A DNA stretch of 49,651 nucleotides from a virus, in IMG/VR virus record IMGVR_UViG_3300045988_028961. One strand, given 5' to 3'. Numbering within the stretch: the first letter of the stretch is position 1; every line of letters starts with the position of its first letter. Positions 5,550 to 37,681 of this stretch are shown here, piece by piece. Position numbers and translations under genes: made by a program. The notes below the pieces were generated by a model that did no database searches, was not told the origin of the DNA, and saw only the letters and a program-made list of their open reading frames with translations.

Positions 5550-6311
5550 ATGAACGAACTGATGATTTTCAACAATCCGGAGTTTGGCGAGATTCGCACG
5601 ATGGAAGAGGACGGAGGCGTTCTTTTCTGCGGGAACGATGTTGCCAAAGCACTTGGTTACAAGAGCCCGAAAGATGCAGTTTCTACACACTGCCGTGGGG
5701 CGGTGAAACGCCGCCTCACCGATTCTTTGGGTAGAGAGCAAGATACGGCATTTATTCCCGAAAGCGATTTGTACAGGCTGGTGTTTAGTTCAAAGCTGCC
5801 AGCGGCGGAAAAGTTCACCGATTGGGTGACAAAGGATGTTTTGCCTACGATCCGCAAGACCGGCGGCTATTCGCTGCCGAAGGACTATCCTTCCGCGCTC
5901 CGTGCTCTGGCTGATGCAGAAGAAAAGCGCCTGGCACTCGTTGCGGAGAACGAACGCCAAGCGCAAATGATCGCAGAGTTTGAGCCTATCCGCCAGTATG
6001 TGGACACCATTCTGGAAAGCACGGACGCGCTGGCGACTTCTCAGATCGCCGCCGACTACGGCATGAGCGCCCAGCAGCTGAATAAGATCCTCCGTGACGA
6101 AGGAATCCAGCACAAGGTCAACGGCCAATGGCTGCTTTACAAGAAGCACATGAACAAGGGCTACACCAAGAGCAAGACGATCAAGTTCAATCACTCTGAC
6201 GGTAGGCCTGATACAAAGCTTTCCACCCAGTGGACACAAAAGGGCCGTTTGATGATTCACAACATTCTGGAGAGCCGTGGTGTCGTGGCGATGATGGATA
6301 GAGCGTCGTAA
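5550..6311 (+). CDS. Phage antirepressor (Bro-N plus KilAC-type domains)
   Basis: N-terminal FNNPEFGEIRT...GNDVAKALGY...DLYRLVFSSKLP...FTDWV is Bro-N-like. The C-terminal half resembles the KilAC/ANT type. ATG 5544 is an alternative start. Confidence 0.8.
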   Translation: MNELMIFNNPEFGEIRTMEEDGGVLFCGNDVAKALGYKSPKDAVSTHCRGAVKRRLTDSLGREQDTAFIPESDLYRLVFSSKLPAAEKFTDWVTKDVLPTIRKTGGYSLPKDYPSALRALADAEEKRLALVAENERQAQMIAEFEPIRQYVDTILESTDALATSQIAADYGMSAQQLNKILRDEGIQHKVNGQWLLYKKHMNKGYTKSKTIKFNHSDGRPDTKLSTQWTQKGRLMIHNILESRGVVAMMDRAS

Positions 6312-6323
6312 GGGGGGCTGAAA

Positions 6324-6704
6324 ATGATCTTTTGGATTGCTGTTATTTTAACGGTTGCCGCAATTGTGCTCGGATGCTTGTTTGATGACCTGTTTCCGGT
6401 TTGGCTGGGAATCGGTCTCACCAGCTTTGTAGCTGCTGTAGTTATGCTTATCATTATTATTGCCAACAATGTTGCACCCGATGCTCAGATTGCGCGGTGT
6501 TATGCCCAATACGACTCCTTGGTTTATCAATATGAAAATGACGTTTACGACAATGACAACGATCTTGGTAAACGTGATCTGATGGAAGACATTGAGTCGT
6601 GGAATAAAGATCTTGCTTACTACAGAAAAGTCCAGCGGAACTTCTGGGTCGGTATCTTCTACCCGAACATTTACGACAGATTTGATTTTATCGAACTGCA
6701 ATGA
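6324..6704 (+). CDS. hypothetical membrane protein (two TM helices)
   Basis: IFWIAVILTVAAIVLGCLF and LTSFVAAVVMLIIIIA helices. RBS AAGGGGGG. Confidence 0.55.
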   Translation: MIFWIAVILTVAAIVLGCLFDDLFPVWLGIGLTSFVAAVVMLIIIIANNVAPDAQIARCYAQYDSLVYQYENDVYDNDNDLGKRDLMEDIESWNKDLAYYRKVQRNFWVGIFYPNIYDRFDFIELQ

Positions 6705-6735
6705 AGGGGAAGGAGTGCAAGGGGAGGAACGGAGA

Positions 6736-6966
6736 ATGACACTTTGCGGAAAAGACTGCACACCATGCTGTGACTTCTGCACCTACGCCAAGCACGGTAC
6801 GGTTGTAGTTGACGGTAAACGTGTAACCGCTGGTCCTATTGGCTGTAAGCTACATAAGGACAAAGAACACCAGGACATTGCCGATACCTGCGGATACTGT
6901 GATGACTTTCGTTGTTTCCAAAGTTTGGTGCCGACAGGCGACGACGGGAGAAAAAGATGCGAATAA
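6736..6966 (+). CDS. hypothetical Cys-rich small protein
   Basis: RBS GGGGAGGAACGGAG lies before ATG 6736. Motifs CGKDCTPCCDFC...CGYCDDFRC. Confidence 0.45.
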   Translation: MTLCGKDCTPCCDFCTYAKHGTVVVDGKRVTAGPIGCKLHKDKEHQDIADTCGYCDDFRCFQSLVPTGDDGRKRCE

Positions 6967-7121
6967 AAAGCGCTGAATCTTTTGGATTTTGCGATGTTTT
7001 TATTAAAGAACTCAACAAGACAGTGCCGTTATATGGCGTAATACAAGAAGTGCAGAGGTGCCCAAAGTGCGAAACGTGCTCCGTGAAAAGATTTTGCTGT
7101 ATTCCAGAAAACGTGTATTAG
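6957..7121 (+). CDS. hypothetical small protein
   Basis: Overlaps the previous stop. CPKCETC motif. Weak support. Confidence 0.3.
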   Translation: MRIKSAESFGFCDVFIKELNKTVPLYGVIQEVQRCPKCETCSVKRFCCIPENVY

Positions 7122-7259
7122 GAGCTTCTCCGTGTGGGAAAAGATTGTGTTACCTGTATCGTGAACGGTAAAACTGGTGAGTTTTACGTTGGGTTTATGA
7201 GCTTAATACAACGGTATAAACAAGATTGAAAATACGATCCAGGAAGGCGAGGTGAGCGT

Positions 7260-7697
7260 ATGCCGGCAGGAGCGCCAAGAAAATGGAAAAGCGTAAGCGC
7301 GATGCAAAAGGCGATTGACGCTTACTTCAAAGAGTGTGAGGGTGAGCCGTTTATCGGCGATGACGGTTGTGCTGTGCGAGATAAGTACGGCATACCGATT
7401 ATCATTAACGTAAAGCCGCCGACGATAACGGGACTTGCGTTAGCACTTGGATTTACAGGCAGACAAGCGCTGCTGGATTATCAGGCAAGGCCAGAATTCG
7501 CGGACACGGTTACGCGAGCAAAGGCCAGATGTGAAGAATACGCTGAATCTCGCCTTTATGACAAGGACGGGGCAAACGGTGCAAAATTTAGTTTGGGTTG
7601 TAATTTTGGATGGAACTCCGGCGAGGAAAGGCGCGGCGATCCTGCTGCGTTTGCGGCTTTGATTTCTGCAATAAAGGGCGGCAGCGATGCAACTTAA
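7260..7697 (+). CDS. terS: Terminase small subunit (gp3-like DNA-packaging protein)
   Basis: Sits directly upstream of, and overlapping, the large terminase. PPTITGLALALGFTGRQALLDY is an HTH-like segment typical of small terminases. Confidence 0.7.
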   Translation: MPAGAPRKWKSVSAMQKAIDAYFKECEGEPFIGDDGCAVRDKYGIPIIINVKPPTITGLALALGFTGRQALLDYQARPEFADTVTRAKARCEEYAESRLYDKDGANGAKFSLGCNFGWNSGEERRGDPAAFAALISAIKGGSDAT

Positions 7698-8895
7698 ACA
7701 GCTTTCGCGGAAGCAAAAGGCCATATTTGGATTTACGGAATCTGACGATCTGGCTCTTGTGTGTGATGGCTCCGTCCGATCCGGCAAGACAACAATCATG
7801 ACGCTTGCGTTTGTTGCTTGGGCCATGAAGAACTACGACCGCACCAACTTTGCTATTTGCGGAAAGACGGTGCAGTCGGCGGAACGCAACATCTTAAAGC
7901 CGTTGATGGAAATAGAGGGGCTGGGCGCGGCGCTGTCGATGAGCTATAAGGTTTCCACGCGTGTGCTGACGGTTCGGTGTGGAAACGTGACGAACTGGTT
8001 TTATCTTTTCGGAGGAAAAGATGAAAGTTCGTACATGTTGATTCAGGGTATCACGCTGGCCGGAGTACTGTTTGACGAAGTGGCATTGATGCCGCGGTCG
8101 TTCGTCGAGCAAGCGCTTTCTCGCGCGATTTCGTTTGAACACCCCAAGTACTTTTTCAACTGCAACCCCGAAAGCCCAAACCATTGGTTTTATCAGGAGT
8201 GGATCAAAGCACCGCGGAAGAATACGCAGCATATTCACTTTTTGCTGGACGATAACCCCGTGTTGACGCCGCAGATGATAGAACGGACAAAGGCGATGTA
8301 CTCCGGTGTGTTCTACGACCGGTATATCCGGGGGCTGTGGGTGATCGCCGAGGGCCTTGTTTACCCCATGTTCTCCCGCGAGGTCAATGTGACCAGCGAA
8401 CGGGGTGGGCCGGGGACGTATTATATTAGCTGCGACTACGGCACGCAAAATCCCACGGTGTTTGGCCTGTGGCGTGTGCACAAGGGCGAAGCTGTGATGG
8501 AAAAGGAATACTATCACAGCGGGCGCGAGACAAACCGGCAAAAGACGGACGAGGAATATTATCAAGACCTGGAAGCCTTTGCGGATGGGGACAAGATCGA
8601 GCGGATCATTATTGACCCCAGCGCCGCATCGTTTGCGGAGTGCATACGGCGACATGGTAAGTTTTCTGTGTGGAACGCCAATAACGCGGTGTTGGACGGT
8701 ATTCGACTGACGGGTGCATTGATGAAAGCCGGAAAGATAAAGTTTCACGAAAGTTGTGTACATGCATTTGAGGAATTCGGACTTTACAGCTGGGATTCTG
8801 AAGCGGCAGAGGACAAGGTAATTAAAGAGAATGATCACGTGTGTGATGCCACACGCTATTTTTGCCAAACTGTACTTAGGAGAGAGTTAAGATGA
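7687..8895 (+). CDS. terL: Terminase large subunit
   Basis: Walker A CDGSVRSGKT, Walker B-like VLFDEV, and a C-terminal nuclease region with ...DHVCDATRYF. Confidence 0.9.
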   Translation: MQLKQLSRKQKAIFGFTESDDLALVCDGSVRSGKTTIMTLAFVAWAMKNYDRTNFAICGKTVQSAERNILKPLMEIEGLGAALSMSYKVSTRVLTVRCGNVTNWFYLFGGKDESSYMLIQGITLAGVLFDEVALMPRSFVEQALSRAISFEHPKYFFNCNPESPNHWFYQEWIKAPRKNTQHIHFLLDDNPVLTPQMIERTKAMYSGVFYDRYIRGLWVIAEGLVYPMFSREVNVTSERGGPGTYYISCDYGTQNPTVFGLWRVHKGEAVMEKEYYHSGRETNRQKTDEEYYQDLEAFADGDKIERIIIDPSAASFAECIRRHGKFSVWNANNAVLDGIRLTGALMKAGKIKFHESCVHAFEEFGLYSWDSEAAEDKVIKENDHVCDATRYFCQTVLRRELR

Positions 8896-10280
8896 GTTTT
8901 TGGGGCAACTTTATGAACACCGTAAGACGCGCACTATTCCCGCAGGCGGCAGCCGAGCGGGAATTTGGCGTATCTCCCGCCGTCAGCATGACGATGGAAA
9001 AGTATATTGCGCTGTGGTACGCCATGATGGTAAACACGCCGCCTTGGCAGGACTGCAACGTGAAAGCGGTGGGTTTGCCCGCCGCCATCTGCCGAGAGGT
9101 AACACGGCCCACGCTGGTGGAGTTCACGGCCAACATTACGGGGAGTCAGCGTGCGGATTACCTGAATGACGGTTTTCAGTTGGCGAAGGAGAATTTCGGC
9201 AAGGCGCTGGAGCTGGGGCTTGCGCTGGGTGGCGTGGCCTTGAAGCCTTACATCTACGGCGATAAACTGCTGGTGGACATGACCGGCGCGGCAGGATTTC
9301 AGCCCACAAAGTTTGACCCGACGGGCAGATGCATCGGCGGCGTATTTCGCGACAAGCCTGTGAAGGTCAACGGGAAGTACTATGTTCGATTGGAGTCCCA
9401 CGACCTGACCGATACCACTTACACCATCAAGAACAAGGCATATTACAGCGATTCTACCGGCTCTGTTGGTGCGCCTGCGCCGCTGGATGTGGCGCCGGAA
9501 TGGGCGGATATTCAGGAAGAGGTGACCATCCAGAACATGGATGGGCCGCTGTTTGCCTATTTCAAGCCGCCCATCGCCAACATAGCGGACACTAACAGCC
9601 TGTGCGGTATGTCCATCTATGGCGACGCGGCGACGGTGGAACTGATCAAGCAGGCGGATGAACAGTGGGAGCGTCTGCGGTGGGAGTTCAAGTCCGGTGA
9701 GCGCAAGGTGCTGATGGACGGCAACACAAGCACGGCGGACATGTTTGACAAGCGTCTGTTTGAGATTGGCGCTTTTACGGCTGACGGCGATTTCTACCAG
9801 TTCCTCAATCCGGAACTGCGAAATGACGCGGTTTACAAGGGTTTCCAAGACGTTCTACGGCGCATTGAGTTCAATGTGGGCCTGTCTTATGGCGACATTT
9901 CCGACCCCCAAACGGTGGAAAAGACGGCGACAGAAATCAGAAGCAGCAAGCAGCGCAAGTATGTGCTGATCAGCAGTATTCAGACGGCGCTTGAACATAC
10001 GTTCGACGCGCTGATCTACGCAATGAACACATATGCCACGCTGTACGGGCTGGCTGCGGATGGTGAGTATGAAGTCACTTACGATTGGGGCGACAGCATT
10101 CTTGACGATCAAGAAACCAAGGACAAGGAATTCGCACGAGACTTGCAGCTTTTGAGTGCTGGCATTGTCAACGATTGGGAGCTGCGGGCGAAGTACATGA
10201 ATGAAGATGAGGAAACCGCAAAGGCGGCGCTGCCAAGGATGCAGGACGTTGTGGAAGAGACGCAGCGGGAGGTGGAGTGA
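8892..10280 (+). CDS. Portal protein (SPP1 gp6-like)
   Basis: 462 aa, immediately after terL with an ATGA-type overlap. Acidic C-terminus. Position and size are typical of a portal. Confidence 0.85.
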   Translation: MSFWGNFMNTVRRALFPQAAAEREFGVSPAVSMTMEKYIALWYAMMVNTPPWQDCNVKAVGLPAAICREVTRPTLVEFTANITGSQRADYLNDGFQLAKENFGKALELGLALGGVALKPYIYGDKLLVDMTGAAGFQPTKFDPTGRCIGGVFRDKPVKVNGKYYVRLESHDLTDTTYTIKNKAYYSDSTGSVGAPAPLDVAPEWADIQEEVTIQNMDGPLFAYFKPPIANIADTNSLCGMSIYGDAATVELIKQADEQWERLRWEFKSGERKVLMDGNTSTADMFDKRLFEIGAFTADGDFYQFLNPELRNDAVYKGFQDVLRRIEFNVGLSYGDISDPQTVEKTATEIRSSKQRKYVLISSIQTALEHTFDALIYAMNTYATLYGLAADGEYEVTYDWGDSILDDQETKDKEFARDLQLLSAGIVNDWELRAKYMNEDEETAKAALPRMQDVVEETQREVE

Positions 10281-10371
10281 TGGGTTATCCTTGGGAAGAA
10301 AGCCACGGTTCGCTTTGGATAAACATCGGGACTGCTGAAAATCCAGATTGGGTGTTTTTGGGAGCCATAAA

Positions 10372-12036
10372 ATGAACAGATACCCGTTCGACCCCGCTAC
10401 TTTAGATGCGCTGCCGGAGGAACTGGCGGAGTTGTATCGCGGGCTGGAAGATACCCTGTTGATGGAGATATGCTCCCGGCTCAAGACTTCGGACGAGCTG
10501 AACGAGGTCACGGTGCAGGACATCAAGGCGCTTCGGGCGCACGGCATTGACCCGAAGGAGATCGAGAAAGCCATACGCAAGACCACGGGCATCAGTGAGC
10601 AGAAGCTCAAGAAGTTGCTGGACGATGTAGTGGCACGGAATCAGGCGTATTACACCGAGCTTATTACGTTGGCGGATGTGACGCGGCCTGACGTGCTGGT
10701 GGACGCGGCGGCTATTGCGGCGATCTACGCACAGACAAAGCAAGAGTGCCGGAACATCACCCGCAGCATGGGCTTTTTGGTGGACAATGGCCGGACGATG
10801 CTGCCGCCTGCCAAAGCGTACCAATGGTGCTGCGATTCCGCGCTTATGCAGGTGCAGAGCGGCGCGATTTCCTACAATCAGGCGATATCCAATGCCGTGA
10901 AGCAGCTGGCGGACAGCGGCTTGAAAACGGTGGACTACGAGAGTGGGCACCGGGATCAGGTAGACGTGGCGGCGAGACGGGCCGTTATGTCTGGCGTGAA
11001 CGCTCTCAATCAAAAGTATGCGGAGCAATCTGCCGAATATCTGGAGACCGATCTTGTGGAAGTAAGCGCTCATATCGGGGCGCGAAACACGGGAAACGGG
11101 CTGGAAAACCATGAGAGTTGGCAAGGCGGCGTGTATCGGTGGGCTGAGAAACCCGGAGATTCAAAGGGCGAGTACAAGGATTTTGTTGCTACCACCGGAT
11201 ACGGCCAGGGCGCTGGTCTGGGCGGATGGAACTGCCGACACACCTTTTATCCGTTTGTGGAGGGCATCAGTGAGCCGACCTATTCACAGGCCGACCTTGA
11301 CGCCATGAAGGGCGAGAACCGCAAGTTTGTGTTTGATGGCAAGGAGTACGACGGGTACACAGCCACGCAAATGCAGCGCAGCATAGAGCACCAGATACGC
11401 AAGCAGAAGCGCCTTAGAGACGCTTACAAGGCCGCTGGGCTGAAAGATGACGAGACCGCCGCCAACATCAAGCTGCGCCGCCTGAACGCCAAATACAAGG
11501 AATTCAGCAAGGCGGCGGGGCTGCCGGAACAACCGGAGCGGTTGAAGGTGCTTTATGGCGATACAAAAAGCACTGCCGCCGCTCAAGCGCTTAAGGCGCA
11601 GCGGCAAGCAGAAGCCGCACAGGCAGCGTTGCAAAACGAAAAGAATATCGCTATACTGAAAGAGAAGATCGCCAACGGCGAGATATCCACAGCAATCAGG
11701 CCACAGGTGCAAGCACGCCATATCGAAGGAACGGCGGAGTTTGAGCGGTATAAGGCGCAAAGACTTGCAAAGGGTAAGACTCCGCAAAGCATCTTAACGA
11801 TCACCGTAAAGGAAGCACAAGAAATCGTTGATAAATACGCCTGCACGGGAACTGTGACCATTAAGACGCCGAAAGACGCCCCAATAGAAATCAGAGAGTA
11901 TAGGAACGTGGATAAGGTGATCGGGCAATACTACAAAAACAATGCTTTCCACAGCACAAAACGCGCCATAATTGTGTACGCAAAAAAGGGGACACACATC
12001 GTTCCGACGATTCCAAAGGAGGATCAACATGGTTAA
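10372..12036 (+). CDS. MuF / SPP1 gp7-like head morphogenesis protein with a C-terminal toxin-like extension
   Basis: Follows the portal. The central region ...GGWNCRHTFYPF... is typical of the Mu F / minor capsid family. A coiled-coil linker leads to a ~115-aa extra domain ending ...YAKKGTHIVPTIP. TTG 10348 is an alternative start. Confidence 0.8.
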   Translation: MNRYPFDPATLDALPEELAELYRGLEDTLLMEICSRLKTSDELNEVTVQDIKALRAHGIDPKEIEKAIRKTTGISEQKLKKLLDDVVARNQAYYTELITLADVTRPDVLVDAAAIAAIYAQTKQECRNITRSMGFLVDNGRTMLPPAKAYQWCCDSALMQVQSGAISYNQAISNAVKQLADSGLKTVDYESGHRDQVDVAARRAVMSGVNALNQKYAEQSAEYLETDLVEVSAHIGARNTGNGLENHESWQGGVYRWAEKPGDSKGEYKDFVATTGYGQGAGLGGWNCRHTFYPFVEGISEPTYSQADLDAMKGENRKFVFDGKEYDGYTATQMQRSIEHQIRKQKRLRDAYKAAGLKDDETAANIKLRRLNAKYKEFSKAAGLPEQPERLKVLYGDTKSTAAAQALKAQRQAEAAQAALQNEKNIAILKEKIANGEISTAIRPQVQARHIEGTAEFERYKAQRLAKGKTPQSILTITVKEAQEIVDKYACTGTVTIKTPKDAPIEIREYRNVDKVIGQYYKNNAFHSTKRAIIVYAKKGTHIVPTIPKEDQHG

Positions 12037-12438: not shown

Positions 12439-12537
12439 AACAAATATTCGACCTCGCTCTAAGCGGTGAGTGAGAAGAGCCGAGAGGGGCTAACTGACTA
12501 CAGTTTGTAGTTGGTTAGCCCCTCTTTCTTTTTTTCA
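12439..12537 (+). ncRNA. Candidate ~100-nt small RNA (orphan promoter-to-terminator unit)
   Basis: Lies between the promoter at 12404-12432 and the intrinsic terminator at 12482-12537. No ATG-initiated ORF and no RBS. Confidence 0.4.
12482..12537 (+). terminator. Rho-independent terminator
   Basis: Long stem GAGGGGCTAAC...GTTAGCCCCTC with inner ACTACA/TGTAGT pairing, followed by TTTCTTTTTTT. Confidence 0.7.
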
Positions 12538-27735: not shown

Positions 27736-28617
27736 ATGAGCACTCAGACTGAAATTACAAGACTTCAGAATGCGAGAAACACGATCCGCACCTGGCTGGT
27801 AGGCTTGGGGCTGGCCACGGCCACCGACAAGATGGACGCGCTGGCCACCAAGGCGGCGGCCATCAAGAACCAGGGCGCTATTGACGCCAGCGTCAAGGAG
27901 GGCGAGAGCTACACCATCCCGGCGGGATATCATAACGGCACCGGCACCGTCAAGGGTGTGGCGGGCGGCGGCAACTACCAGCTGCAGGCCAAGACCGCGA
28001 CCCCCACCAAGGAGCAGCAGTCCATTACGCCTGACCAAGGCTACTACGGCCTGTCCGGCGTGACCGTTGGCGCCATCCCCGAAAACTATCAGGACGTGTC
28101 CGCAACCACAGCGAAGGAGGGCGACGTGCTGGCCAACAAGGTCTTTGTCAAGGCCGATGGTTCCACGGCAGCCGGTACCATGAAGGACAACGGCAGCGTG
28201 AGCAAGACGCTGGACGCCACCACCGACAACCAGAGCTACACCGTCCCCGCTGGTAAGCACAGCGGCGAGGGCACGGTGACGATCGTGCTGGAGGAGAAGA
28301 GCGCCACGCCCGCCGAGGCAGCCCAGACGGTTTCCCCCACGGCGGGCAAGGTGCTGAGCAAGGTGACTGTGGCGGCGATCCCCGTTAAGTACAAGGACGT
28401 GTCCGGTGTGACGGCCACGGCGGCCCACGTGCTGGCGGGCGACAAGTTTGTGGACAGCAAGGGCGTGCTCACAGACGGCACCATGGCCAACAACGGAGCA
28501 GTGTCCAAGACCATGGACGGCCTGACAGAGACCTCTGTGACCATCGCCGCGGGCTACACTTCCGGCGGCACTGTGATCTTGACCAACGCCATCGAGACCG
28601 CGCTGGCGGCGATTTGA
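27736..28617 (+). CDS. Tail fibre protein with internal repeats
   Basis: The N-terminal TEITRLQNARNTI module is shared with the next gene. Repeated ATP..(E)QQ..P..G..LS.VTV.AIP..Y.DVS..TA units. Confidence 0.6.
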   Translation: MSTQTEITRLQNARNTIRTWLVGLGLATATDKMDALATKAAAIKNQGAIDASVKEGESYTIPAGYHNGTGTVKGVAGGGNYQLQAKTATPTKEQQSITPDQGYYGLSGVTVGAIPENYQDVSATTAKEGDVLANKVFVKADGSTAAGTMKDNGSVSKTLDATTDNQSYTVPAGKHSGEGTVTIVLEEKSATPAEAAQTVSPTAGKVLSKVTVAAIPVKYKDVSGVTATAAHVLAGDKFVDSKGVLTDGTMANNGAVSKTMDGLTETSVTIAAGYTSGGTVILTNAIETALAAI

Positions 28618-28625
28618 GGTGCACT

Positions 28626-30329
28626 ATGAGTATTTTGACTGAAATCACACGGTTAGAAAACGCAAAAGCCGCCATTGCCGCAGCAATCGCAGAAAAAGGC
28701 GTTACTGTGCCGGATGGGACACTGCTGGACGGCATGGCGGCGTTGATTGACAGCATTGAAACCGGTGTAGGCGACGACACGCCGGACTATGTGCTGACCG
28801 CCGCCGATGCGCTGGCCAAGAAGGTCGTGAACCACATCGGAAGCGACAACATCGTGTTTGCAGCAATGGCGGACGCGCACCTTGGCTACTATACCGACAC
28901 GGAGAACGCTGCAGGCAAACAGGCGGGGCAGGCGCTGAAACGGCTTACCGAGCGGTGCGACTTGGATTTTGTTGTCCATCTGGGCGACTACACCACCGGC
29001 GCGTGGAACACCACCGTGGAATCTGCTATGCAGGACAACGCAGACTATCAGCTGCTTATCGGTTCCAAGTTTCCCGGTCGGCAGGCGTGGTGCGTGGGCA
29101 ACCACGATGACGCGCCCTATCAGGCCACGGCGAACCGAATGACCCAGACGCAGGTGTACGCCGCCATCAGCCGGAAGAATCTGGCCAGCAACGGCTATGT
29201 GCCGGGCAACACAGCCTACGGCTACATGGACTTCCCCGCGCTGCGGCTGCGACTGATTTATCTGGACACCCATGACCGGAGAGGTTGGAGCAGCGCGCAG
29301 GTAGGTGTAGGTGAGAACTGCAATTTTCTTAATGTGGAAAACATCGGCGCTGTGCAGCTCCAGTGGCTGGCAGACCACGCGCTGAATTTCAGCGACGTGG
29401 ACGATCCCTCCAAGTGGTCGATTCTGGTTTTATCACACGCTGTTTTGGGTACGTCCGGCACCTACACCGACCCCGGCCCCGGCGGCATGGTGCATCCGTG
29501 CAATACGGCCAACGCGGCGACGCTGCTAAAAGCCTACGCCACCAAGAAGAGCGGCAGCATCTCCCACGGCGGCGTGGCAGTGAACTACGATTTCACGGCG
29601 GTCACACCGGCGGGGATCATCGGGTGTATCCACGGCCACGAACATCGCTATGCCAACGAGACCGTGGGCGGGGCGTTCCTGTCCATTTGCTGCCCAAACA
29701 TCTTGAACGGGCGAGAGCGTGTGTCGGTGGACGGCAACACTTACAGCAAGACGGCGGGGACGGCCAACGGCACATCCTTCTGCGTGTTCAGTATCAACCG
29801 CGCTGACAAGAAGATCTATGTTGACCACTACGGCCCCGGCATTGACAGGGAGTTTGACTATACCGTGATCGACCCCAGCGCACCCAGCTACACCAACATG
29901 CTGCCCAGTGCCACCGACACGGACGGCAGCGTCTACAACGACGTAGGCTATGCGGTGGGCCAGCGGCTCAACAGCTCCGGCACCGCCGAGAGCTACACCG
30001 GTATGTATCTGACAGGCTTCATTCCGGTCAGTTTTGGCGACGTGGTGCGGCTGAAGAACGTCACATGGCAGTACGGCGTGACCTCCGGGATCACCAGCAA
30101 CAACCAGCGTATTTCCTTCTACGACGCGAACAAGAGCCATCTGGGACAGACAAACGGTGCTGGCGCGGGCGGCACGCTGGCTGGCGTGAAGGATGCCAAC
30201 AACATCTGGACGCAGTTCACGGTGAAAAACTCCAGCGGTCTAACGCTGGATAATGTCGCTTATTTCAGGCTTTGCTGCGCAGGCATCACAAGCGAGAGCA
30301 TCATCACCGTCAACGAGGAGATCACGTAA
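28626..30329 (+). CDS. Tail fibre-like protein carrying a calcineurin-type metallophosphoesterase domain
   Basis: N-terminal TEITRLENAKAAI module. Phosphoesterase motifs ADAHLG, HLGDY, GNHD, LSHA and GHEHR, in order. A ~150-aa C-terminal beta-rich domain. Confidence 0.65.
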   Translation: MSILTEITRLENAKAAIAAAIAEKGVTVPDGTLLDGMAALIDSIETGVGDDTPDYVLTAADALAKKVVNHIGSDNIVFAAMADAHLGYYTDTENAAGKQAGQALKRLTERCDLDFVVHLGDYTTGAWNTTVESAMQDNADYQLLIGSKFPGRQAWCVGNHDDAPYQATANRMTQTQVYAAISRKNLASNGYVPGNTAYGYMDFPALRLRLIYLDTHDRRGWSSAQVGVGENCNFLNVENIGAVQLQWLADHALNFSDVDDPSKWSILVLSHAVLGTSGTYTDPGPGGMVHPCNTANAATLLKAYATKKSGSISHGGVAVNYDFTAVTPAGIIGCIHGHEHRYANETVGGAFLSICCPNILNGRERVSVDGNTYSKTAGTANGTSFCVFSINRADKKIYVDHYGPGIDREFDYTVIDPSAPSYTNMLPSATDTDGSVYNDVGYAVGQRLNSSGTAESYTGMYLTGFIPVSFGDVVRLKNVTWQYGVTSGITSNNQRISFYDANKSHLGQTNGAGAGGTLAGVKDANNIWTQFTVKNSSGLTLDNVAYFRLCCAGITSESIITVNEEIT

Positions 30330-31676: not shown

Positions 31677-31687
31677 GAAAACGACAA

Positions 31688-31711
31688 CAGCGCACCCATG
31701 TGGGTGCGCTG
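31688..31711. terminator. Hairpin between convergent genes
   Basis: CAGCGCACCCA tg TGGGTGCGCTG perfect inverted repeat. Weak U-runs. Confidence 0.5.
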
Positions 31712-31725
31712 TTGATCAATAAGCG

Positions 31726-32064
31726 TCAGCCTCTCTCGTGCAGGCCAACGGCCTGGGCCAGCAGAAGACGAACGTAAGCTGGGCAGGTGTTCGTGCCAGA
31801 TTCCCAGTTTTCCACCGTCCGGCGGGGGATGCAGAAGCGCTGGGCAAAGGCGGCCTGGGACAGGCCGGTGGCGGCACGGATCTCCTTGACCGTCAGATGG
31901 GCGGCGTCCCAGAGCTGGCCGAGCTGCTGGAGGCGGTCATCCGGGATCGCGGCGTCGGGCGCGTCGCCCCAGATGGATGACAGGGCCGCGTCGGAAATGA
32001 AGGCGTCGCGGTCGGCGGAGGCCAAGGCCTCGGCCCAGAGGACGTTGAATTGAAAATCAGTCAT
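31726..32064 (-). CDS. XRE-type HTH protein (antitoxin-like or autoregulator candidate)
   Basis: The C-terminal LTVKEIRAATGLSQAAFAQRFCIPRRTVENWESG... is a classic XRE HTH. Confidence 0.7.
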   Translation of the reverse strand: MTDFQFNVLWAEALASADRDAFISDAALSSIWGDAPDAAIPDDRLQQLGQLWDAAHLTVKEIRAATGLSQAAFAQRFCIPRRTVENWESGTNTCPAYVRLLLAQAVGLHERG

Positions 32065-32082
32065 GCTGCTCTCCCTTCTGCG

Positions 32083-32370
32083 TCAGCGGACTTCGAACGC
32101 GACGATCTCACTGTCGCGGTCGGCGTTCTCCTCGTCGAACTCCCGGCCCTCGGCCTGGAAGCGGTAGACGGGCCACAGCTCGACTTCCTGCGGGTTCTCC
32201 GTGTCGAGGTCGTAGCGGTTCAGCACCCGGAAGGAGCGCAGGTATGCTTCGCCGTTCCAGCCGTCGGCGCAGTACAGAGCACCGTCGATATCGTAGATGG
32301 GCATGTCGTTGGAGGGCTGGGCGTTCCACCAGGAATCAACCGGGGCGATGGCTTTGATGTTCTCGTTCAT
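32083..32370 (-). CDS. hypothetical acidic protein (95 aa), first gene of the 2-gene module
   Basis: RBS GAGAGGAG. Trp- and acid-rich. No domain recognised. Confidence 0.6.
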   Translation of the reverse strand: MNENIKAIAPVDSWWNAQPSNDMPIYDIDGALYCADGWNGEAYLRSFRVLNRYDLDTENPQEVELWPVYRFQAEGREFDEENADRDSEIVAFEVR

Positions 32371-32422
32371 GTTGTTCTCCTCTCTGCCGCGTGGCGGCGA
32401 TCCATATCTAACTTACGGGTTT

Positions 32423-32451
32423 AGTATACCACCGATTCGGTGGTATGTCAA
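32423..32451 (-). promoter_or_regulatory. Consensus-like promoter with a palindromic operator in the spacer
   Basis: On the minus strand: TTGACA (32451-32446), a 17-nt spacer, then TATACT (32428-32423). The palindrome ATACCACCG-att-CGGTGGTAT at 32426-32446 fills the spacer. Confidence 0.65.
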
Positions 32452-32561
32452 GCATAAATCGCAGAACTTTTTGAAAGAAAATCTGAGCGAGGCGTGAGGC
32501 TACGATCCGCCGCCCTCCGCCTCCGTGAATAGCTCCGCAAGCTCACGGCGTGGGAATCAGC

Positions 32562-32801
32562 ATGAATCCGACACATCGTGATATCCGGGCAAAGCTACAG
32601 TCTATGGCGCCCCAGCGGGCGGTGGCCTACATCGCCGGGCTGGGATTGCAAAGCGACGAAGAATTTTTCCTGATCGAGTGCGACGTAAAAGGCAGAAGCT
32701 ATGCGCAGCTATGCACACAGCATTTTGTCACGCCGGAATATATCAACCGGCGACGGCGACGCGCTTACGGGAAAATCGCAGACCATATAAAGAATTTATA
32801 G
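32562..32801 (+). CDS. Sigma-70 region-4-like / phage transcription regulator candidate
   Basis: ...EEFFLIECDVKGRSYAQLCTQHFVTPEYINRRRRRAYGKIADHI resembles the region-4 HTH of small phage activators. The start is uncertain (32550 or 32562). Confidence 0.45.
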   Translation: MNPTHRDIRAKLQSMAPQRAVAYIAGLGLQSDEEFFLIECDVKGRSYAQLCTQHFVTPEYINRRRRRAYGKIADHIKNL

Positions 32802-32884: not shown

Positions 32885-33034
32885 ATGAGCAACAGAAAAC
32901 GATTGATTGAGTGCGGATACACGGAGGAAATGGCAGCGGAAATCTGCCGACTGTACGAAAACGACGAATCCGGACTTTCGATGTTTGTCCATATCATCGA
33001 ACTGTTTTTTGATGACAGGCGAGAGTATGTATAG
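32885..33034 (+). CDS. hypothetical small protein (49 aa)
   Basis: RBS AAGGAGGTG lies before ATG 32885. Confidence 0.4.
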   Translation: MSNRKRLIECGYTEEMAAEICRLYENDESGLSMFVHIIELFFDDRREYV

Positions 33035-33404
33035 CTATTTCAATAAAAACCCCAGGGGCAAAAATGTGGGAGATTGCACGGTGAGGGCAATCTCAAAAGC
33101 CACGGGCCAGGACTGGGAGACAACTTACCTTGCGCTGGCGATGCAGGGCTATTTGGAAGGAGACATGCCGTCTGCAAACGCGGTGTGGGGTGCGTATCTG
33201 CATCGGCTTGGCTACAAAAGACACTTGGTGCCGGATACCTGTCCGGTCTGCTACACGGTAGGCGATTTTGCAAAAGAACATTTGGTAGGCACCTACATTC
33301 TGGCGCTGTCCGGGCATGTGGTATGCGTGCAGGACGGGACGATCTACGATTCGTGGAACTGTGAAAACGAAACGGTTTTGTATTACTGGAGCAAGGAGGA
33401 CTAA
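33027..33404 (+). CDS. hypothetical protein, possible papain-fold Cys/His enzyme
   Basis: NVGDCTVRAIS (candidate Cys), LSGHVVCV (candidate His) and IYDSWN. The start is 33012 or 33027. Confidence 0.5.
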   Translation: MYSYFNKNPRGKNVGDCTVRAISKATGQDWETTYLALAMQGYLEGDMPSANAVWGAYLHRLGYKRHLVPDTCPVCYTVGDFAKEHLVGTYILALSGHVVCVQDGTIYDSWNCENETVLYYWSKED

Positions 33405-33407
33405 ATC

Positions 33408-33839
33408 ATGGCGTACCCTTACGGCTATCAAAATCCTTATTATCCGCAGCCGATGCCGGACAATCTGATGCAGATGCGACAGCAGCAAATGCCGCAGATG
33501 CAGCCAATGCCGCAGGCAGCAAATCCTATCCCCCAGAGCGGCGTGCAGTGGGTCAACGGCGAGATGGAGGCAAGAAACTGGATGGTGGCACCCAACGCAG
33601 CTATCGCGCTGTGGGATTCTTCGGCACCGACGGTGTACTTGAAACAGGCAGACGCCAGCGGTAAACCAACGCTGAAAATCTACGACCTTGTAGAACGCGC
33701 AGAAACGGGCGCTCCTGCGGCGCAAAAAGCTGGCGTGGAGTTTGTCACCCGCGAGGAATTTGACCGCTTAGCGGCACTTGTGGGCGAACTGAAAGGCAAG
33801 AAAAAGCGCAGAGTGGAGGAGGATGACGACGATGAGTAA
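33408..33839 (+). CDS. hypothetical protein with a P/Q/M/Y-rich N-terminus and an acidic tail
   Basis: MAYPYGYQNPYYPQPMPDNLMQMRQQQMPQMQPMPQ..., and the C-terminus KKKRRVEEDDDDE. Confidence 0.55.
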   Translation: MAYPYGYQNPYYPQPMPDNLMQMRQQQMPQMQPMPQAANPIPQSGVQWVNGEMEARNWMVAPNAAIALWDSSAPTVYLKQADASGKPTLKIYDLVERAETGAPAAQKAGVEFVTREEFDRLAALVGELKGKKKRRVEEDDDDE

Positions 33840-34053
33840 CAATCCGTTTTTTGGTGCGCTGGGCGGCAGGCAAATGCCGGGGCCGGTAAGCGGCTTTGCA
33901 CAAATGGTGCAGCAGTTCAACCAGTTTAAGCAGACATTTAAAGGCGACCCCAAAGCGGAGGTGGAAAAGCTTTTGCAGAGTGGGGCTATTTCGCAGCAGC
34001 AGTTGAACCAGTTGCAGCAGATGGCGAAACAGTTCCAAAGTCTGATGCAGTAA
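33832..34053 (+). CDS. hypothetical Q-rich helical small protein
   Basis: Overlaps the previous stop. ...FAQMVQQFNQFKQTF...QQQLNQLQQMAKQFQSLMQ. Confidence 0.5.
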   Translation: MSNNPFFGALGGRQMPGPVSGFAQMVQQFNQFKQTFKGDPKAEVEKLLQSGAISQQQLNQLQQMAKQFQSLMQ

Positions 34054-34132
34054 AAAATATAAGGCAAATATTTTAATTCTTTATCGTGGCCACGATTCAG
34101 ATAAAAACAATTTTAAATAAAGGAGTGATTAT

Positions 34133-34855
34133 ATGTCTCTTTCTGACGGCGGCGCTCCCATGATGACTATGCCTGTGGCTCCCGCCAACAATTACGGAGG
34201 CGGTATGGGCATGTGGGGCGACAATTGGATCTGGATCATCGTTCTCTTTCTGTTTGGCTGGGGCCGTAACGGCTGGGGCGGCAACGGTAACGGCGGTGTG
34301 ATGGATGGCTACATCCTGACTTCTGACTTTGCCAACATCGAGCGCAAACTGGACGGCGTAAACAACGGTATTTGCGACGGCTTTTATGCCATGAATACCG
34401 GTATGCTGAACGGCTTTGCCGGTGTGACCCAGGCTGTGACCAGCGGCTTCTCCGCTGCGGAGCTGGCCCGTTGCAACCAGCAGGCAGCCTTGATGCAGCA
34501 GCTTACTGCTATGCAAATGCAGAATCAGGAGTGCTGCTGCGAAAACCGTGCGGCTATCGCACAGGTCCGGTATGACATGGCGACGCAGGCCTGCGACACC
34601 CGCAATACGGTGAGCACTGCTGCGCGTGACATCATCGACAACCAGAACCAGAACTCCCGCGCTATCCTGGATTTCCTGACCCAGAGCAAGCTGCGTGATC
34701 TGGAAAGCGCCAATCAGGAGCTGCGTCTGCAGGCTTCTCAGGCTGCGCAGAACAATTATCTGGTGTCTCAGCTGCGGCCCACGCCGATTCCCGCGTACCA
34801 GTCCTGTAACCCCTGGGCTGGCGGCAGCTACACCGGCTGCTGCTCCTGCGCCTGA
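34133..34855 (+). CDS. hypothetical membrane protein: G/W/N-rich N-terminus, one TM helix, coiled coil, Cys-rich C-terminus
   Basis: RBS AAAGGAG. GGGMGMWGDNWIWIIVLFLFGWGRNGWGGNGNGG, an internal QECCCENR, and the C-terminal GCCSCA. Confidence 0.6.
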   Translation: MSLSDGGAPMMTMPVAPANNYGGGMGMWGDNWIWIIVLFLFGWGRNGWGGNGNGGVMDGYILTSDFANIERKLDGVNNGICDGFYAMNTGMLNGFAGVTQAVTSGFSAAELARCNQQAALMQQLTAMQMQNQECCCENRAAIAQVRYDMATQACDTRNTVSTAARDIIDNQNQNSRAILDFLTQSKLRDLESANQELRLQASQAAQNNYLVSQLRPTPIPAYQSCNPWAGGSYTGCCSCA

Positions 34856-34936
34856 CAACTGCATAGCATAGCTTTTCGGGCATCATATTGGTGATGTCAC
34901 CGAAATGTTCGGCCCCGTGCCGATACTGACAACAAC

Positions 34937-34969
34937 GCGGCGGGGCTTTTGCTCCGCCGCTGTATTTTT
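34937..34969 (+). terminator. Rho-independent terminator
   Basis: GCGGCGGGGC-tttt-GCTCCGCCGC followed by TGTATTTTT. Confidence 0.7.
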
Positions 34970-34986
34970 GAGAAAGGATCTGTTTT

Positions 34987-35202
34987 ATGAGAACCGTAAA
35001 CGAACTGAAAATTGATTTTGTCAATCATTTGGCAACCCTGGACAAGTCTAAGATGAACATCTATGAACTGGGCAATTATGCGGATCTGCTGCGTAAGGCA
35101 GACGAGCTTTTTAAGCCCAGCTACACAGACCTGCTTTCCAATGGGGCGCTGTCCCCTTTTGGGGCAATCTTCGGGAAGAAGGAGGAGAAAGAGAATGGCT
35201 GA
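34987..35202 (+). CDS. hypothetical small protein (71 aa)
   Basis: Follows the terminator. Overlaps the start of the next gene. Confidence 0.45.
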   Translation: MRTVNELKIDFVNHLATLDKSKMNIYELGNYADLLRKADELFKPSYTDLLSNGALSPFGAIFGKKEEKENG

Positions 35203-35617
35203 GTTTTTTAATAATGCTGTTGTTGATGTTTCCGCTGGACAAAGCGTCCCTCTCACATCCACGGCAGTCAACAACAAGCCCTGCATCGTTCATCGCAACG
35301 GAAGCGGGCAGGTGACGCTTCGCGGGCTCACTAACCAATGCAAAGCACGCTATAGAGTGGCCTTTGGCGGCAACATTGCCATCCCCACCGGAGGCACAGT
35401 TGAGGCGATCAGCGCCGCTCTGGCGATCAACGGCGAACCGCTGAACAGCGCGACGGCCATCGTTACGCCTGCGGCGGTGGAAAATTATTTCAATATCTAC
35501 GTCAGCGCCATCGTGGAGGTCCCGCGCAACTGCTGTCTGACTGTGGCAATGGAAAACACAAGCACGCAGGCTGTCAGCTTTGCCAACTCCAACATGGCCG
35601 TTGACCGAATCTCTTGA
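35195..35617 (+). CDS. hypothetical beta-rich protein (possible BclA-C / C1q-TNF-like jelly roll)
   Basis: RBS GAAGGAGGAG. Alternating beta-strand-like sequence ...VTLRGLTNQCKARYRVAFGGNIAIPTGG...YVSAIVEVPRNCCLTVAMEN. The fold call is a guess. Confidence 0.55.
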   Translation: MAEFFNNAVVDVSAGQSVPLTSTAVNNKPCIVHRNGSGQVTLRGLTNQCKARYRVAFGGNIAIPTGGTVEAISAALAINGEPLNSATAIVTPAAVENYFNIYVSAIVEVPRNCCLTVAMENTSTQAVSFANSNMAVDRIS

Positions 35618-35630
35618 AAGGAGCGATAAT

Positions 35631-36005
35631 ATGAGCATGAAAGCATTAAACGATATCCGGGATATGCTGTGCGAGGAACTGGACGAATTGGCCCGCAAGG
35701 GCGAGCTGGGTGCTGGTGATTTGGAGATCATCCACAAGGCCGTTTCTTCCATCAAGAACATTGACAAGATTGAGATGTTCGACGGCGGCTATTCTCGCGA
35801 CGGTGACTGGGACGCCAATATTCGCGGCACTTACGGACGGGGCAGTTCTTACCGTGGCCGTCACCGCGATTCTATGGGCCGCTACAGCCGAGACGATGCC
35901 CACGAACATATGCGCCGCCAGTTGCAGGACATGATCCGCGACGCTGACGATGATAACGTGCGTGAGGCTCTGCGGCGCTGCATGACGCAGATGGAGACCA
36001 TGTAA
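35631..36005 (+). CDS. hypothetical charged protein with an R/G/S/Y/D-rich centre
   Basis: RBS AAAGGAG. ...GGYSRDGDWDANIRGTYGRGSSYRGRHRDSMGRYSRDD... Confidence 0.5.
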   Translation: MSMKALNDIRDMLCEELDELARKGELGAGDLEIIHKAVSSIKNIDKIEMFDGGYSRDGDWDANIRGTYGRGSSYRGRHRDSMGRYSRDDAHEHMRRQLQDMIRDADDDNVREALRRCMTQMETM

Positions 36006-36020
36006 GGGGGTGCGCCCCCC

Positions 36021-36350
36021 GTGATCGACGAGAAGGAATTGCAGCTTTGGATTAGTAGGCTCGAAACCGAAGAATCCAGCTGGGGCAACTATGAAAAGCT
36101 GGCCGCGTTATACACCATTGCCAATCAGCACAAAGAGGTAAGCTTGCCGGAAATGCCGGTCATGTACTCTGCCGCGCCTGCGCCGGAAGCTGTGCAGTTG
36201 GTAGGCGAGTATGGGGACAGCCCGTTTTTACAGGCGGTCGCCAAAGTGTCACCGGAAAAGGCATGGGGCGTGATGGACGAGCTGATGGACGCGCTGATCA
36301 TTTCCAATAGCCGGGTATACAACAGCGTAATGGCAAAACTGGGGCGGTAA
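36021..36350 (+). CDS. hypothetical protein (109 aa)
   Basis: GTG start after AAGGGGG. Last gene before attP. Confidence 0.45.
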   Translation: MIDEKELQLWISRLETEESSWGNYEKLAALYTIANQHKEVSLPEMPVMYSAAPAPEAVQLVGEYGDSPFLQAVAKVSPEKAWGVMDELMDALIISNSRVYNSVMAKLGR

Positions 36351-36483: not shown

Positions 36484-36531
36484 TGCCTTTTAAGCAGGGT
36501 GTCCGGGGTTCGAATCCCCGACGGGGCACCA
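36484..36531 (+). other. attP core: 3' portion of a tRNA-Lys(UUU)-like gene
   Basis: Anticodon loop CTTTTAA, 3' anticodon stem GCAGG, T arm CGGGG-TTCGAAT-CCCCG, acceptor 3' strand ACGGGGC, then A-CCA. No matching 5' acceptor strand or D arm lies upstream. The integrase gene is adjacent. Confidence 0.65.
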
Positions 36532-36533
36532 AA

Positions 36534-36574
36534 AAATCCTCGTAACCATGCGGGTTACGAGGATTTTTCTTTTT
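36534..36574. terminator. Bidirectional intrinsic terminator
   Basis: 14-bp stem AAATCCTCGTAACC/GGTTACGAGGATTT flanked by an A-run and a T-run. Follows the tRNA fragment (+) and the integrase stop (-). Confidence 0.7.
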
Positions 36575-36577
36575 CTG

Positions 36578-37681
36578 CTATTTTGCCTTTGTTTGTAACG
36601 TGTTAGTAACCGCACTGACCAGCGTTTCTGCGTCAATGTGCGTGTAAACGTCGGCAGTTGTGGCATAATTGGCATGACCGAGAATTTTTTGCAGATATTC
36701 AGGGGCAAGACCTTCTTTGACCGCGCGGGTGGCGTAAGTGTGCCGCGTGGCATGGGGGGTCTTTTTTTCTATTTTGAGCCTTTCCAACAGGGAGTAATAT
36801 TCCCGCCTGCGGAAGTTGGCAGGGACTTTTTGACCATCATATCCTGAAATTAGCAAACTGCCGTTTGCTTTTTTTGCAAAGTATGCAAAATACTCCTGGC
36901 CTTCTGGCCGGATAGGGATAATGCGGTTTTTGCCTGCTTCTGTCTTTTCACCGCCGACCACATAATCCCCGTGATAATCTTTCAGTGGTAGGGTGAACAA
37001 TTCACCGATGCGCATACCGGTGGCAAGAAGCATAAGGATGATCTTGGCGGTGTCGCTGCCGTCCTTTTCTAGCTTTTTAATCTCGGCGGCGGTAAACACG
37101 TCTTTTTCTTTCTTGACGTTTTCCGGAAGCTTTACAAAGCGGGCAAAGTTGGTGGTGCAAATTTCCTCTCGCACGGCCCATGTGGACATCTGGGTAATAA
37201 GCTGCTTGTACTTGTTTACCGTGGAGTGGCTTTTGCTCATGTGCTGGTCGATCACCGATTGGAAGTCATCGGTGCGCAGGCTGCGAAATTTCTTATCGTG
37301 CAGTGGCTGAAAGATCACATAAGCGCGTTCGTAGGTCTCGATGCCCTTCTCTCCGATCTCGCGGTAATGCTCCGCTTTCCACTCGGTAAAAACTTCCGAG
37401 AAGGTCATGTTGTACCGTTCGTCCAAATCCTTGCCGGAAAGCTTCTCTAAGGCCGCCAGCGCGTCCGTTTTCTTCTCGTAGTATCCGACAATGACCTTGT
37501 TCTTCGCGGCCACCCACGGCCTTGTACGGCGGCCTGAAAGCTTATAAACGGTTCCGGCTCCGTTGGGACGCTTCAACGCTTTGCGGGGCGCTGCGGCCTG
37601 TCTCTTTCCACACCACGGGCAAAACGTTGCATTGGCGGGAACTTCTCTCTTACAGCTCTTACATTTCGTTGACTTTTCCAT
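36578..37681 (-). CDS. int: Tyrosine integrase with an N-terminal zinc ribbon
   Basis: CKSCK...CPWCG N-terminus. C-terminal catalytic region ...HATRHTYATRAV...LGHANYATTADVYTH. Confidence 0.9.
   Translation of the reverse strand: MEKSTKCKSCKREVPANATFCPWCGKRQAAAPRKALKRPNGAGTVYKLSGRRTRPWVAAKNKVIVGYYEKKTDALAALEKLSGKDLDERYNMTFSEVFTEWKAEHYREIGEKGIETYERAYVIFQPLHDKKFRSLRTDDFQSVIDQHMSKSHSTVNKYKQLITQMSTWAVREEICTTNFARFVKLPENVKKEKDVFTAAEIKKLEKDGSDTAKIILMLLATGMRIGELFTLPLKDYHGDYVVGGEKTEAGKNRIIPIRPEGQEYFAYFAKKANGSLLISGYDGQKVPANFRRREYYSLLERLKIEKKTPHATRHTYATRAVKEGLAPEYLQKILGHANYATTADVYTHIDAETLVSAVTNTLQTKAK

Follow-up and report, generated by a model that had tools for sequence, protein, structure and literature searches.

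What is the function of the small genes that lie between the lysis genes and the attachment site of the virus catalogued as IMG/VR virus record IMGVR_UViG_3300045988_028961? The whole stretch analysed, here called the window, is 49,651 nucleotides (nt) long, and all positions refer to it. An earlier reading made from the letters alone, the sequence-only reading, picked out seven genes in this place, g1 to g7, as a cassette of cargo with which the prophage may supply its host (lysogenic conversion), be it a cell-envelope or surface-layer structure or a condensate-forming system. Judging from gene order and conservation, these seven genes make up the larger part of a ten-gene module whose function is unknown. 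Two questions follow. Where does the unit begin and end? And does it serve the living lysogen or the lytic cycle?

Comparison with related loci answers the first question. Phages that differ widely, but whose hosts are anaerobic bacteria of gut and rumen, have one fixed gene set in common. It comprises a regulator resembling sigma region 4, p49, a small peptidase, g1, g2, g3, a small Cys-containing beta protein, a disordered helical protein and, in some cases, g7. Our answer to the second question is tentative; we give it roughly one chance in three. The module would be a self-contained accessory set at the distal end of the late (tail/lysis) block, providing a peptidase-controlled, membrane-associated complex late in lytic growth, and would not be host-converting cargo. 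Our direct observations are of gene content, conservation, two protein folds and regulatory punctuation. No described system matches the module; resemblances are confined to folds or architecture.

A gene set that travels between phages

The seven plus-strand open reading frames lie where the sequence-only reading placed them, each behind a GGAGG-like ribosome-binding site; g2 has an alternative ATG at 33823 that would give 76 residues. The exact sequences of g1 to g7 are already public as 'hypothetical protein [Caudoviricetes sp.]' (DAU55055-DAU55062), five of the seven (g1, g2, g3, g5 and g6) fall into PHROG families of unknown function, and g5 and g3 have large numbers of relatives. On these grounds g1 to g7 are judged to be real genes and not chance reading frames. 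The view that they stand outside described families is borne out: Pfam, NCBIfam and PADLOC gave zero family matches for g1 to g7. PADLOC likewise had zero matches among the ten module proteins, its library being one of defence and not of counter-defence, and Rfam recognized no known RNA motif inside the module.

Do these genes belong together? Through g5 or g3 we fetched 161 related IMG/VR loci. They share the fixed order p83 - p8 - g1 - g2 - g3 - (g4) - g5 - g6 - g7, with g1 in 143 loci, g2 in 144, g5 in 143, g6 in 142, g7 in 123 and p8 in 143, while p83 stands directly 5' of the module in 107. Beyond g7 there is either the end of the contig or an integrase gene on the opposite strand. The co-occurrence across genomes that had been proposed as a check is thus found, both here and in the distant phages described below. 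The seven-gene boundary fares less well. The 49-residue frame p49 was detected by tblastn between p83 and p8 in 49 fetched loci (39-100% identity), and the conserved unit extends upstream to 32480, so that the leader, p83, p49 and p8 belong to it too (Table 1). In contrast, g4 is found in only 17 of the 161 loci and looks like variable filler, not a conserved member.

How far does the set reach? More than 540 IMG/VR loci each were found for g5 and g3, the two members scanned, and profile searches covered 78 genome-derived loci. In the latter g1, g5 and p8 still accompany g3 at 30-50% g3 identity, and g1 occurs with g3 in 39. The core kept in distant phages consists of a PQ-rich protein, a Q-rich helical protein, a Cys-rich protein with a hydrophobic segment, a small beta protein, a disordered helical protein and a small peptidase. 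The one invariant member is g3, present in every module variant including those of crAss-like phages. By this comparison the slots of the module are conserved and their occupants exchangeable. Matches to g3 in the phage collection come only from gut, rumen and faecal phages and from phages of anaerobes. The module crosses phage families and host phyla, and with thousands of protein clusters per member, all of them 'hypothetical', it ranks with the more widespread gene sets of gut phages that still lack an explanation.

Its surroundings vary. Upstream neighbours are mostly holins, amidases and sigma-region-4 or GerE genes, and in temperate members lysis genes intervene between the module and the tail genes; Dulem virus 33 has the layout of the window. 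Two loci, L179 and L186, have the module directly after tail or receptor-binding protein genes. In Dulem virus 36, for which no integrase is annotated, the gene for the receptor-binding protein immediately precedes the module and replication genes follow it, with holin and lysin about 17 kilobases (kb) away. In Butyrivibrio phage Ceridwen, which lacks an integrase and has been seen to grow only lytically, the endolysin is followed by the complete set. The module lies among DNA-metabolism genes in the Clostridium perfringens CPD1-like phages and occurs also in phages carrying NrdD, dUTPase and RuvC. A partial version (a DUF7841 protein, a g3 homologue and a type-B-like beta protein) sits beside an annotated holin in the crAss-like cr53_1. 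That the same module is found in Ceridwen, the C. perfringens phages, the NrdD/dUTPase/RuvC phages and Dulem virus 36 runs counter to the label of cargo for lysogenic conversion.

Several loci have peculiarities of their own. Homing-type endonuclease genes (HNH or other) are repeatedly inserted inside the module, mostly between g2 and g3 or beside g5 (L001, 7046-7597; L203, 7450-7950; L201, 3394-3891; L240, 4044-4667; L242, 6109-6903). The inserts in Ceridwen and CPD1 are HNH-like by sequence only, and in L203 the reading frame of g3 is apparently split. A 12-kb contig, L246 (ENA ERZ1745275 NODE_2149), carries at 6267-11115 a truncated g1, g2 to g7, an integrase and a repressor beside Ppx/Ppk and other cellular genes. 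It has no other phage genes and is either a prophage remnant that retained the module or an assembly chimera. In cr53_1 (L241, 3379-6698) several genes beside the g3 homologue have in-frame stops under the standard code. These are consistent with a stop-codon reassignment, which we read as TAG to Gln; the labels 'holin' and 'LysB-like' in this contig are annotator guesses.

Table 1. Features of the module and its borders in the window
Feature	Position	Strand	Remark
Structured leader, GC-rich	32480-32561	+	between lysis genes and first module gene
p83, 79-residue basic helix-turn-helix protein	32562-32801	+	start = ATG 32562
p49, conserved 49-residue open reading frame	32885-33034	+	gene call in public records
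p8, 125-residue candidate Cys-His-Asp hydrolase	33027-33404	+	phrog_3754
g1, 143 residues	33408-33839	+	phrog_21718
g2, 73 residues, Q-rich helical	33832-34053	+	phrog_22984
Inverted repeat	34083-34096	unstranded	just 5' of g3 ribosome-binding site
g3, 240 residues, invariant core protein of the module	34133-34855	+	phrog_16490
Intrinsic terminator or attenuator 3' of g3	34937-34969 (34937-34960 + T-run)	+	10-bp GC stem
g4, 71 residues, variable, non-conserved	34987-35202	+	17/161 loci
g5, 140 residues, stand-alone C1q/TNF-like jelly roll (model)	35195-35617	+	phrog_20016
g6, 124 residues	35631-36005	+	phrog_28802
g7, 109 residues, acidic helical, GTG start, last module gene	36021-36350	+	123/161 loci
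attP core (tRNA gene 3' part)	36484-36535	+	100% identity with ends of two other phage contigs
Integrase	36578-37681	-	beyond attP

The proteins of the module

What kind of protein is the invariant member? From its N-terminus g3 has an acidic tail, a Gly-rich segment, a short hydrophobic segment and a second Gly-rich segment, an N/Q/A-rich helical domain that carries a nearly invariant CCC, a Pro-rich stretch and a CxC C-terminus; the window copy contains 10 Cys. Its relatives form 1528 clusters at 50% identity, and it has no sequence match in Pfam or the PDB. Weak PDB matches to the fusion-peptide regions of influenza HA2 (expectation value (E) about 0.15) were treated as compositional, and the label 'spike protein/glycoprotein' on crAss g3 homologues probably reflects the same effect. 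The sequence-only reading had called g3 a membrane protein. The 240-residue frame with its hydrophobic segment stands; the hydrophobic run, however, is only 12 residues long in the window (family median about 15), and its 19-residue Kyte-Doolittle value of 1.23 is below the transmembrane cut-off of 1.6. Because the run is short and fails this test, a membrane location is something we infer. Among the module proteins a hydrophobic segment is found in g3 alone, and a signal peptide in none.

The architecture of g3 recalls two known lysis proteins. The class III holin T of phage T4 and the i-spanin Rz each combine a single hydrophobic segment with a large helical domain. Like them, g3 has a short N-terminal tail, one hydrophobic segment and a long helical domain, here containing Cys; its gene often adjoins holin or endolysin genes and is tightly bracketed transcriptionally. 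It differs in having no sequence or profile similarity to either. Moreover, the phages already have a standard holin, some modules are unlinked from lysis genes, and most hosts of module phages are monoderm, so that a spanin would be unneeded.

The beta protein g5 is the one whose fold is modelled with confidence. Its AlphaFold2 model has a predicted local distance difference test score (pLDDT) of 93.5, and Foldseek returned 176 PDB matches with E <= 1e-3. The top matches are the C-terminal domains of F-BclA and BclA, ExsFA/BxpB and EDA, with template modelling (TM) scores of 0.70-0.76 and E values down to 2e-7. The model identifies g5 as a ten-strand jelly roll of the C1q/TNF/BclA type, a fold of about 135-150 residues, as the sequence-only reading had suspected, although identity to BclA/ExsFA-type structures is only 10-16%. 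The fold also resembles the short tail fibre of cyanophage A-1(L) and the central spike of phi812. In 15 diverse homologues H33, G36, C113 and N131 never vary and C114 hardly does, and both C113 and C114 are invariant in an alignment of 144 sequences; relatives number 6083 among 90%-identity clusters. The protein is a bare domain, with neither N-terminal collagen-like repeats nor an N-terminal attachment region.

BclA and ExsFA/BxpB belong to the exosporium of the Bacillus cereus group and share with g5 a jelly roll of about 140 residues. ExsFA, like g5, is a stand-alone domain without a signal peptide, and for want of such a peptide g5 would be expected to be made in the cytoplasm. Unlike these proteins, g5 lacks both a collagen-like stalk and a connection with spores. 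Its genes are those of phages, some of which infect non-spore-formers, and an unrelated beta protein can replace it: its slot is filled either by C1q-like g5 or by a Cys-rich protein, type B. Homology between g5 and type B was rejected (hhalign probability 0.5%), as was the idea that type B is an Ena-like pilin, for which there was no Pfam or PDB match. A spore-coat or exosporium module had come to mind because of the BclA/ExsFA fold, the proteins rich in Tyr or Cys, and a Gly-rich hydrophobic segment like that of YjcZ. Taken literally this was rejected, because the module is also found in phages of non-spore-formers.

Is there an enzyme in the set? In 121 sequences of p8, which has 3352 relatives, N6, N8, D16, C17, R20, H97, D108 and W121 are invariant. 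The AlphaFold2 model (pLDDT 87) puts the Cys at the N-terminus of a helix and the His and Asp on a C-terminal sheet, and the Cys-His-Asp order and the order of secondary-structure elements fit a papain-like scaffold. We therefore regard p8 as a probable minimal papain-like Cys-His-Asp hydrolase on the basis of the model. Its top structural neighbours are of the type of the known peptidases with this arrangement (Josephin, OTU and the C39 bacteriocin-leader peptidases). Against the PDB the matches are weak, with Josephin-2 the best (E 0.11, TM 0.44) and OTU and Tae4 also present; the BFVD library of viral structures yields many uncharacterised phage proteins, a protein annotated 'Peptidase C39 domain' at E 2e-3 and, at E 0.05, one with a Josephin domain. 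What sets p8 apart from the known families is that its PDB matches have E >= 0.1, that no Pfam or NCBIfam model matches it and that, at 118-126 residues, it is smaller than their known members. A C39 peptidase acting on a double-glycine leader was considered and dropped: sequence models gave no matches, the PDB neighbours were not significant, and window g3 has no GG motif.

The peptidase appears to be tied to g6. This protein consists of a helical hairpin, a disordered centre rich in R, G, S, Y and D with a conserved RDSMGRYS, and a C-terminal helix; D, R and G are enriched. Its slot is filled either by g6 or by a DUF7841 (PF25223) protein with an R/D/Y-rich region, which stands beside the g3 homologue in variant modules and in cr53_1. 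No DUF7841 domain occurs in the window, and the family is itself one without a known function. With loci tallied without correction for shared descent, a small peptidase accompanies g6 in 109 of 112 loci, whereas DUF7841-type modules lack one in 18 of 19. The peptidase slot holds p8 or, in other lineages, an unrelated HExxH protein of about 106 residues. This sharing of one slot by unrelated enzymes, together with the near-constant presence of a peptidase in g6-type modules, indicates that the peptidase is integral to the module. The motif of the g3 N-terminal tail also tracks the g6/DUF7841 type and not the type of beta protein; the window tail is of the TMPVAP type, and DIAAxTGG occurs only in some lineages.

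In g1 a disordered P/Q/Y-rich N-terminus is followed by a conserved domain of about 60 residues, a short coiled coil and a basic-acidic tail that ends acidic; A, P and Q are enriched. The architecture is kept in 28 diverse homologues, and neither Pfam nor the PDB has a match. The helical g2 is 22% Q and always lies between g1 and g3, and g7 has homologues in Ceridwen and CPD1. In composition the Cys-rich and low-complexity proteins are as the sequence-only reading described them.

Signals within and around the module

How is the module set off from its neighbours? On its 5' side a leader of about 80-88 nt, conserved in related loci, lies between the endolysin stop codon and the ATG of p83; in close relatives it is all that separates the two. 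Individual folds of the leader reveal compensatory substitutions between lineages in the main stem (GGGAAAGAG/CTCTTTCCC, GGGGCAGAG/CTCTGCCCC, GGGAGAC/GTCTCCC), and the motif CYGCAAGYYC is invariant in related loci. Rfam has no match to the leader. It might be an attenuator or a read-through element connecting the late operon to the module.

The first gene after the leader is p83. The window's own copy has no Pfam match; genes at the same position in other loci match Sigma70_r4_2 (5), Sigma70_r4 (3) and GerE (3), and one public source labels the exact p83 protein an 'ECF sigma factor'. It is probably the module's regulator, a protein resembling sigma region 4. We looked on the plus strand 5' of p83 for a sigma-70-like promoter and found none.

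Inside the module, g3 is bracketed by conserved hairpins. On its 5' side is the palindrome ATCGTGGCCACGAT, lengthened in most relatives to TCAAATCGTGGCCACGATTTGA; the palindrome or variants that preserve it (CCGGCCGG, GTGCGCAC) occur in most of 36 distinct g2-g3 intergenic regions. On its 3' side the terminator, whose stem shows compensatory changes, is kept in 51 of 63 distinct intergenic regions, and in most relatives g5 comes directly after it. Palindrome, internal terminator and the adjoining attP are each where the sequence-only reading put them, and the first two prove to be conserved; its claim that regulatory signals split the cassette holds in the form of these hairpins around g3.

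On the 3' side the border is set by integration. The same phage is found integrated in an 86.5-kb contig, whose identity with the window stops at the 3' end of the tRNA, at about 36535 (...GGGGCACCAAAAA). Past this point the contig has host genes, including CtsR, McsA and ClpC. By this alignment the module is the last block before the attachment site in the window, and the host would be a Firmicute with a CtsR-ClpC operon.

Between the endolysin and the module the window has a two-gene insert on the minus strand (31685-32451), encoding a 95-residue protein (32083-32370) and a 112-residue HTH_3 protein (31726-32064). Its promoter, TTGACA-17-TATACT with an extended -10, is close to consensus, and a bidirectional terminator goes with it. 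Its helix-turn-helix gene is present in only 12 of the 161 related loci, for which reason we regard this insert as the window's real 'moron'.

What the module may do

The reading that we prefer starts from what the various settings seem to have in common: a block placed last among the late genes, with a small regulator, a hairpin-bracketed hydrophobic Cys-rich protein, soluble partners and a dedicated peptidase. In the proposed mechanism g3 would insert its Gly/Trp-flanked hydrophobic segment into the cytoplasmic membrane and nucleate a putative complex with cytoplasmic partners, with g1 and g2 as the scaffold. A C1q-like oligomer of g5 might be held in this complex through the conserved Cys pairs. 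Control of g3 would be exerted through its N-terminal tail by g6 and the dedicated peptidase (p8, or the HExxH peptidase in other lineages); where a peptidase is missing, the DUF7841 protein may take over this task. Leader, palindrome and terminator would fix when g3 is made and in what amount. As the output, a late function directed at the membrane would be likeliest: lysis timing or egress, or blocking the entry of other phages.

Several points weigh against this account. The hydrophobic run of g3 is short (12-16 residues) and scores only 1.23 over 19 residues, and the topology of the protein is ambiguous, with an acidic N-terminal tail and few charges on either side of the segment. The correlation of peptidase, g6 and N-terminal tail comes from few independent lineages and could reflect shared descent. 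The timing of expression is inferred from gene order only. The module's own regulator and terminators, and its adjacency to attP in temperate members, fit a moron expressed in the lysogen equally well. Finally, the CPD1 module lies among DNA-metabolism genes and the lysis genes of Dulem virus 36 are about 17 kb off, so that linkage to lysis is not obligatory.

The preferred reading can be sharpened, at a price in confidence. One might see in the module an undescribed phage machine in which the peptidase, or a DUF7841 partner, gates a Cys-rich membrane-acting protein on which a C1q-like oligomer and a disordered scaffold assemble. Such a machine would be common to siphophages of Clostridia and Bacilli and reduced in crAss-like phages, and has been seen so far only in phages of obligate anaerobes. 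We consider this doubtful, and just as doubtful the further step of calling it a new class of late membrane-active apparatus, apart from holins, spanins and known exclusion proteins.

Could the module belong to the virion instead? As an accessory set of the particle it would supply a detachable adhesin or decoration knob (g5), a membrane-penetrating ejection protein (g3) and a wall or maturation peptidase (p8). L179, L186 and Dulem virus 36 have it directly behind genes for tail or receptor-binding proteins, virion genes flank it in cr53_1, and the C1q-like fold matches phage fibre and spike knobs, those of A-1(L) and phi812; all of this agrees with a virion role. But g5 lacks an N-terminal attachment region, a tape measure and a tail-tip (Tal-like) protein are already encoded, and lysis genes lie between the tail genes and the module in temperate members. 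Disordered PQ-rich and RGY-rich proteins, a dedicated regulator and a hairpin-bracketed g3 would also be atypical for structural genes. We judge a virion role to be improbable.

Lysogenic conversion, in which the prophage would express the module and so give its living host a cell-envelope or surface-layer structure, seems to us a poor prospect. Temperate members do carry the module as the last block before attP or attR, between endolysin and attachment site, which is the classical moron slot of Firmicutes siphophages; there, as in morons, it has terminators of its own, as well as its own regulator. L246, which keeps module and integrase beside host genes, looks like a remnant, and g5 resembles exosporium surface proteins. 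A moron, however, would be strain-specific, whereas the module has eight to ten genes whose order is fixed in hundreds of retrieved phage contigs. We disfavour such a surface structure because the module occurs in phages without lysogeny genes (no annotated integrase, or gene content of the virulent type), because it is contiguous with the late operon in relatives, and because secretion signals are missing, neither signal peptides nor sortase motifs nor secretion genes being found in it. The absence of signal peptides in particular would argue against a secreted structure made by a living lysogen.

A similarly poor prospect is that the products are made in the cytoplasm and released by lysis, either as a cross-linked exosporium-like matrix or fibre or as a bacteriocin-like weapon, a receptor-binding C1q trimer combined with a Gly-rich, membrane-active g3 that a peptidase activates. 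BclA and ExsFA, whose folds are closest to that of g5, do assemble in the cytoplasm of the mother cell. Clusters of conserved Cys occur in g3, in g5 and in the type-B beta protein, Q-rich proteins stand beside a Cys-His-Asp enzyme, and there are disordered regions rich in Tyr and Arg; in some lineages the tail of g3 (…DIAAVTGG) resembles a double-glycine leader while p8 weakly matches a C39-annotated viral protein. Yet the hosts include non-spore-formers (Butyrivibrio, and the Bacteroidota that are assumed to host crAss-like phages), Pfam finds no C39, Ena or transglutaminase family, and the PDB matches of p8 are not significant. The leader-like motif is also absent from window g3, which is of the TMPVAP type, and from the DUF7841 lineages.

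Least probable among these accounts is a counter-defence or host-takeover module unrelated to membranes, for example a condensate-forming scaffold of PQY-rich and RGY-rich disordered regions. It would draw on the prion-like and RGG/Y-like low-complexity regions of g1, g6 and the DUF7841 proteins and on a spread across phage types that is typical of accessory modules. Its invariant member, however, is a protein with a hydrophobic segment, and in most phages the module stands at the end of the late block and not among the early genes; PADLOC offers no match, though it covers defence rather than counter-defence. A defence system was rejected, since PADLOC found no match.

If the module is a lytic membrane apparatus, as we tentatively propose, it would be a new component of how phages of anaerobes end an infection or exclude rivals. 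If it is made by lysogens instead, it would be a very common route by which prophages alter abundant gut Firmicutes. The module is directly testable, since Ceridwen and the C. perfringens CPD1-like phages are cultivable carriers.

Elsewhere in the window Rfam matches at gathering level were obtained for drum RNA (78 bits) at 5228-5333, int-alpA RNA (38 bits) at 5426-5498 and gut-2 RNA (47 bits) at 12450-12497, plus strand; all three are orphan metagenomic RNA motifs. A tRNA-like gene at 4863-4945 (plus strand), with an Rfam tRNA score of 45.5 bits, is assigned the four-base anticodon 'ggaa' by ARAGORN; it may be an unusual phage tRNA, of the frameshift-suppressor type or of some other kind. 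Just 5' of the holin, a 571-residue protein (28614-30329) has a weak metallophosphatase match (PF00149) in public gene calls, which is unusual at a distal tail or receptor-binding protein position.

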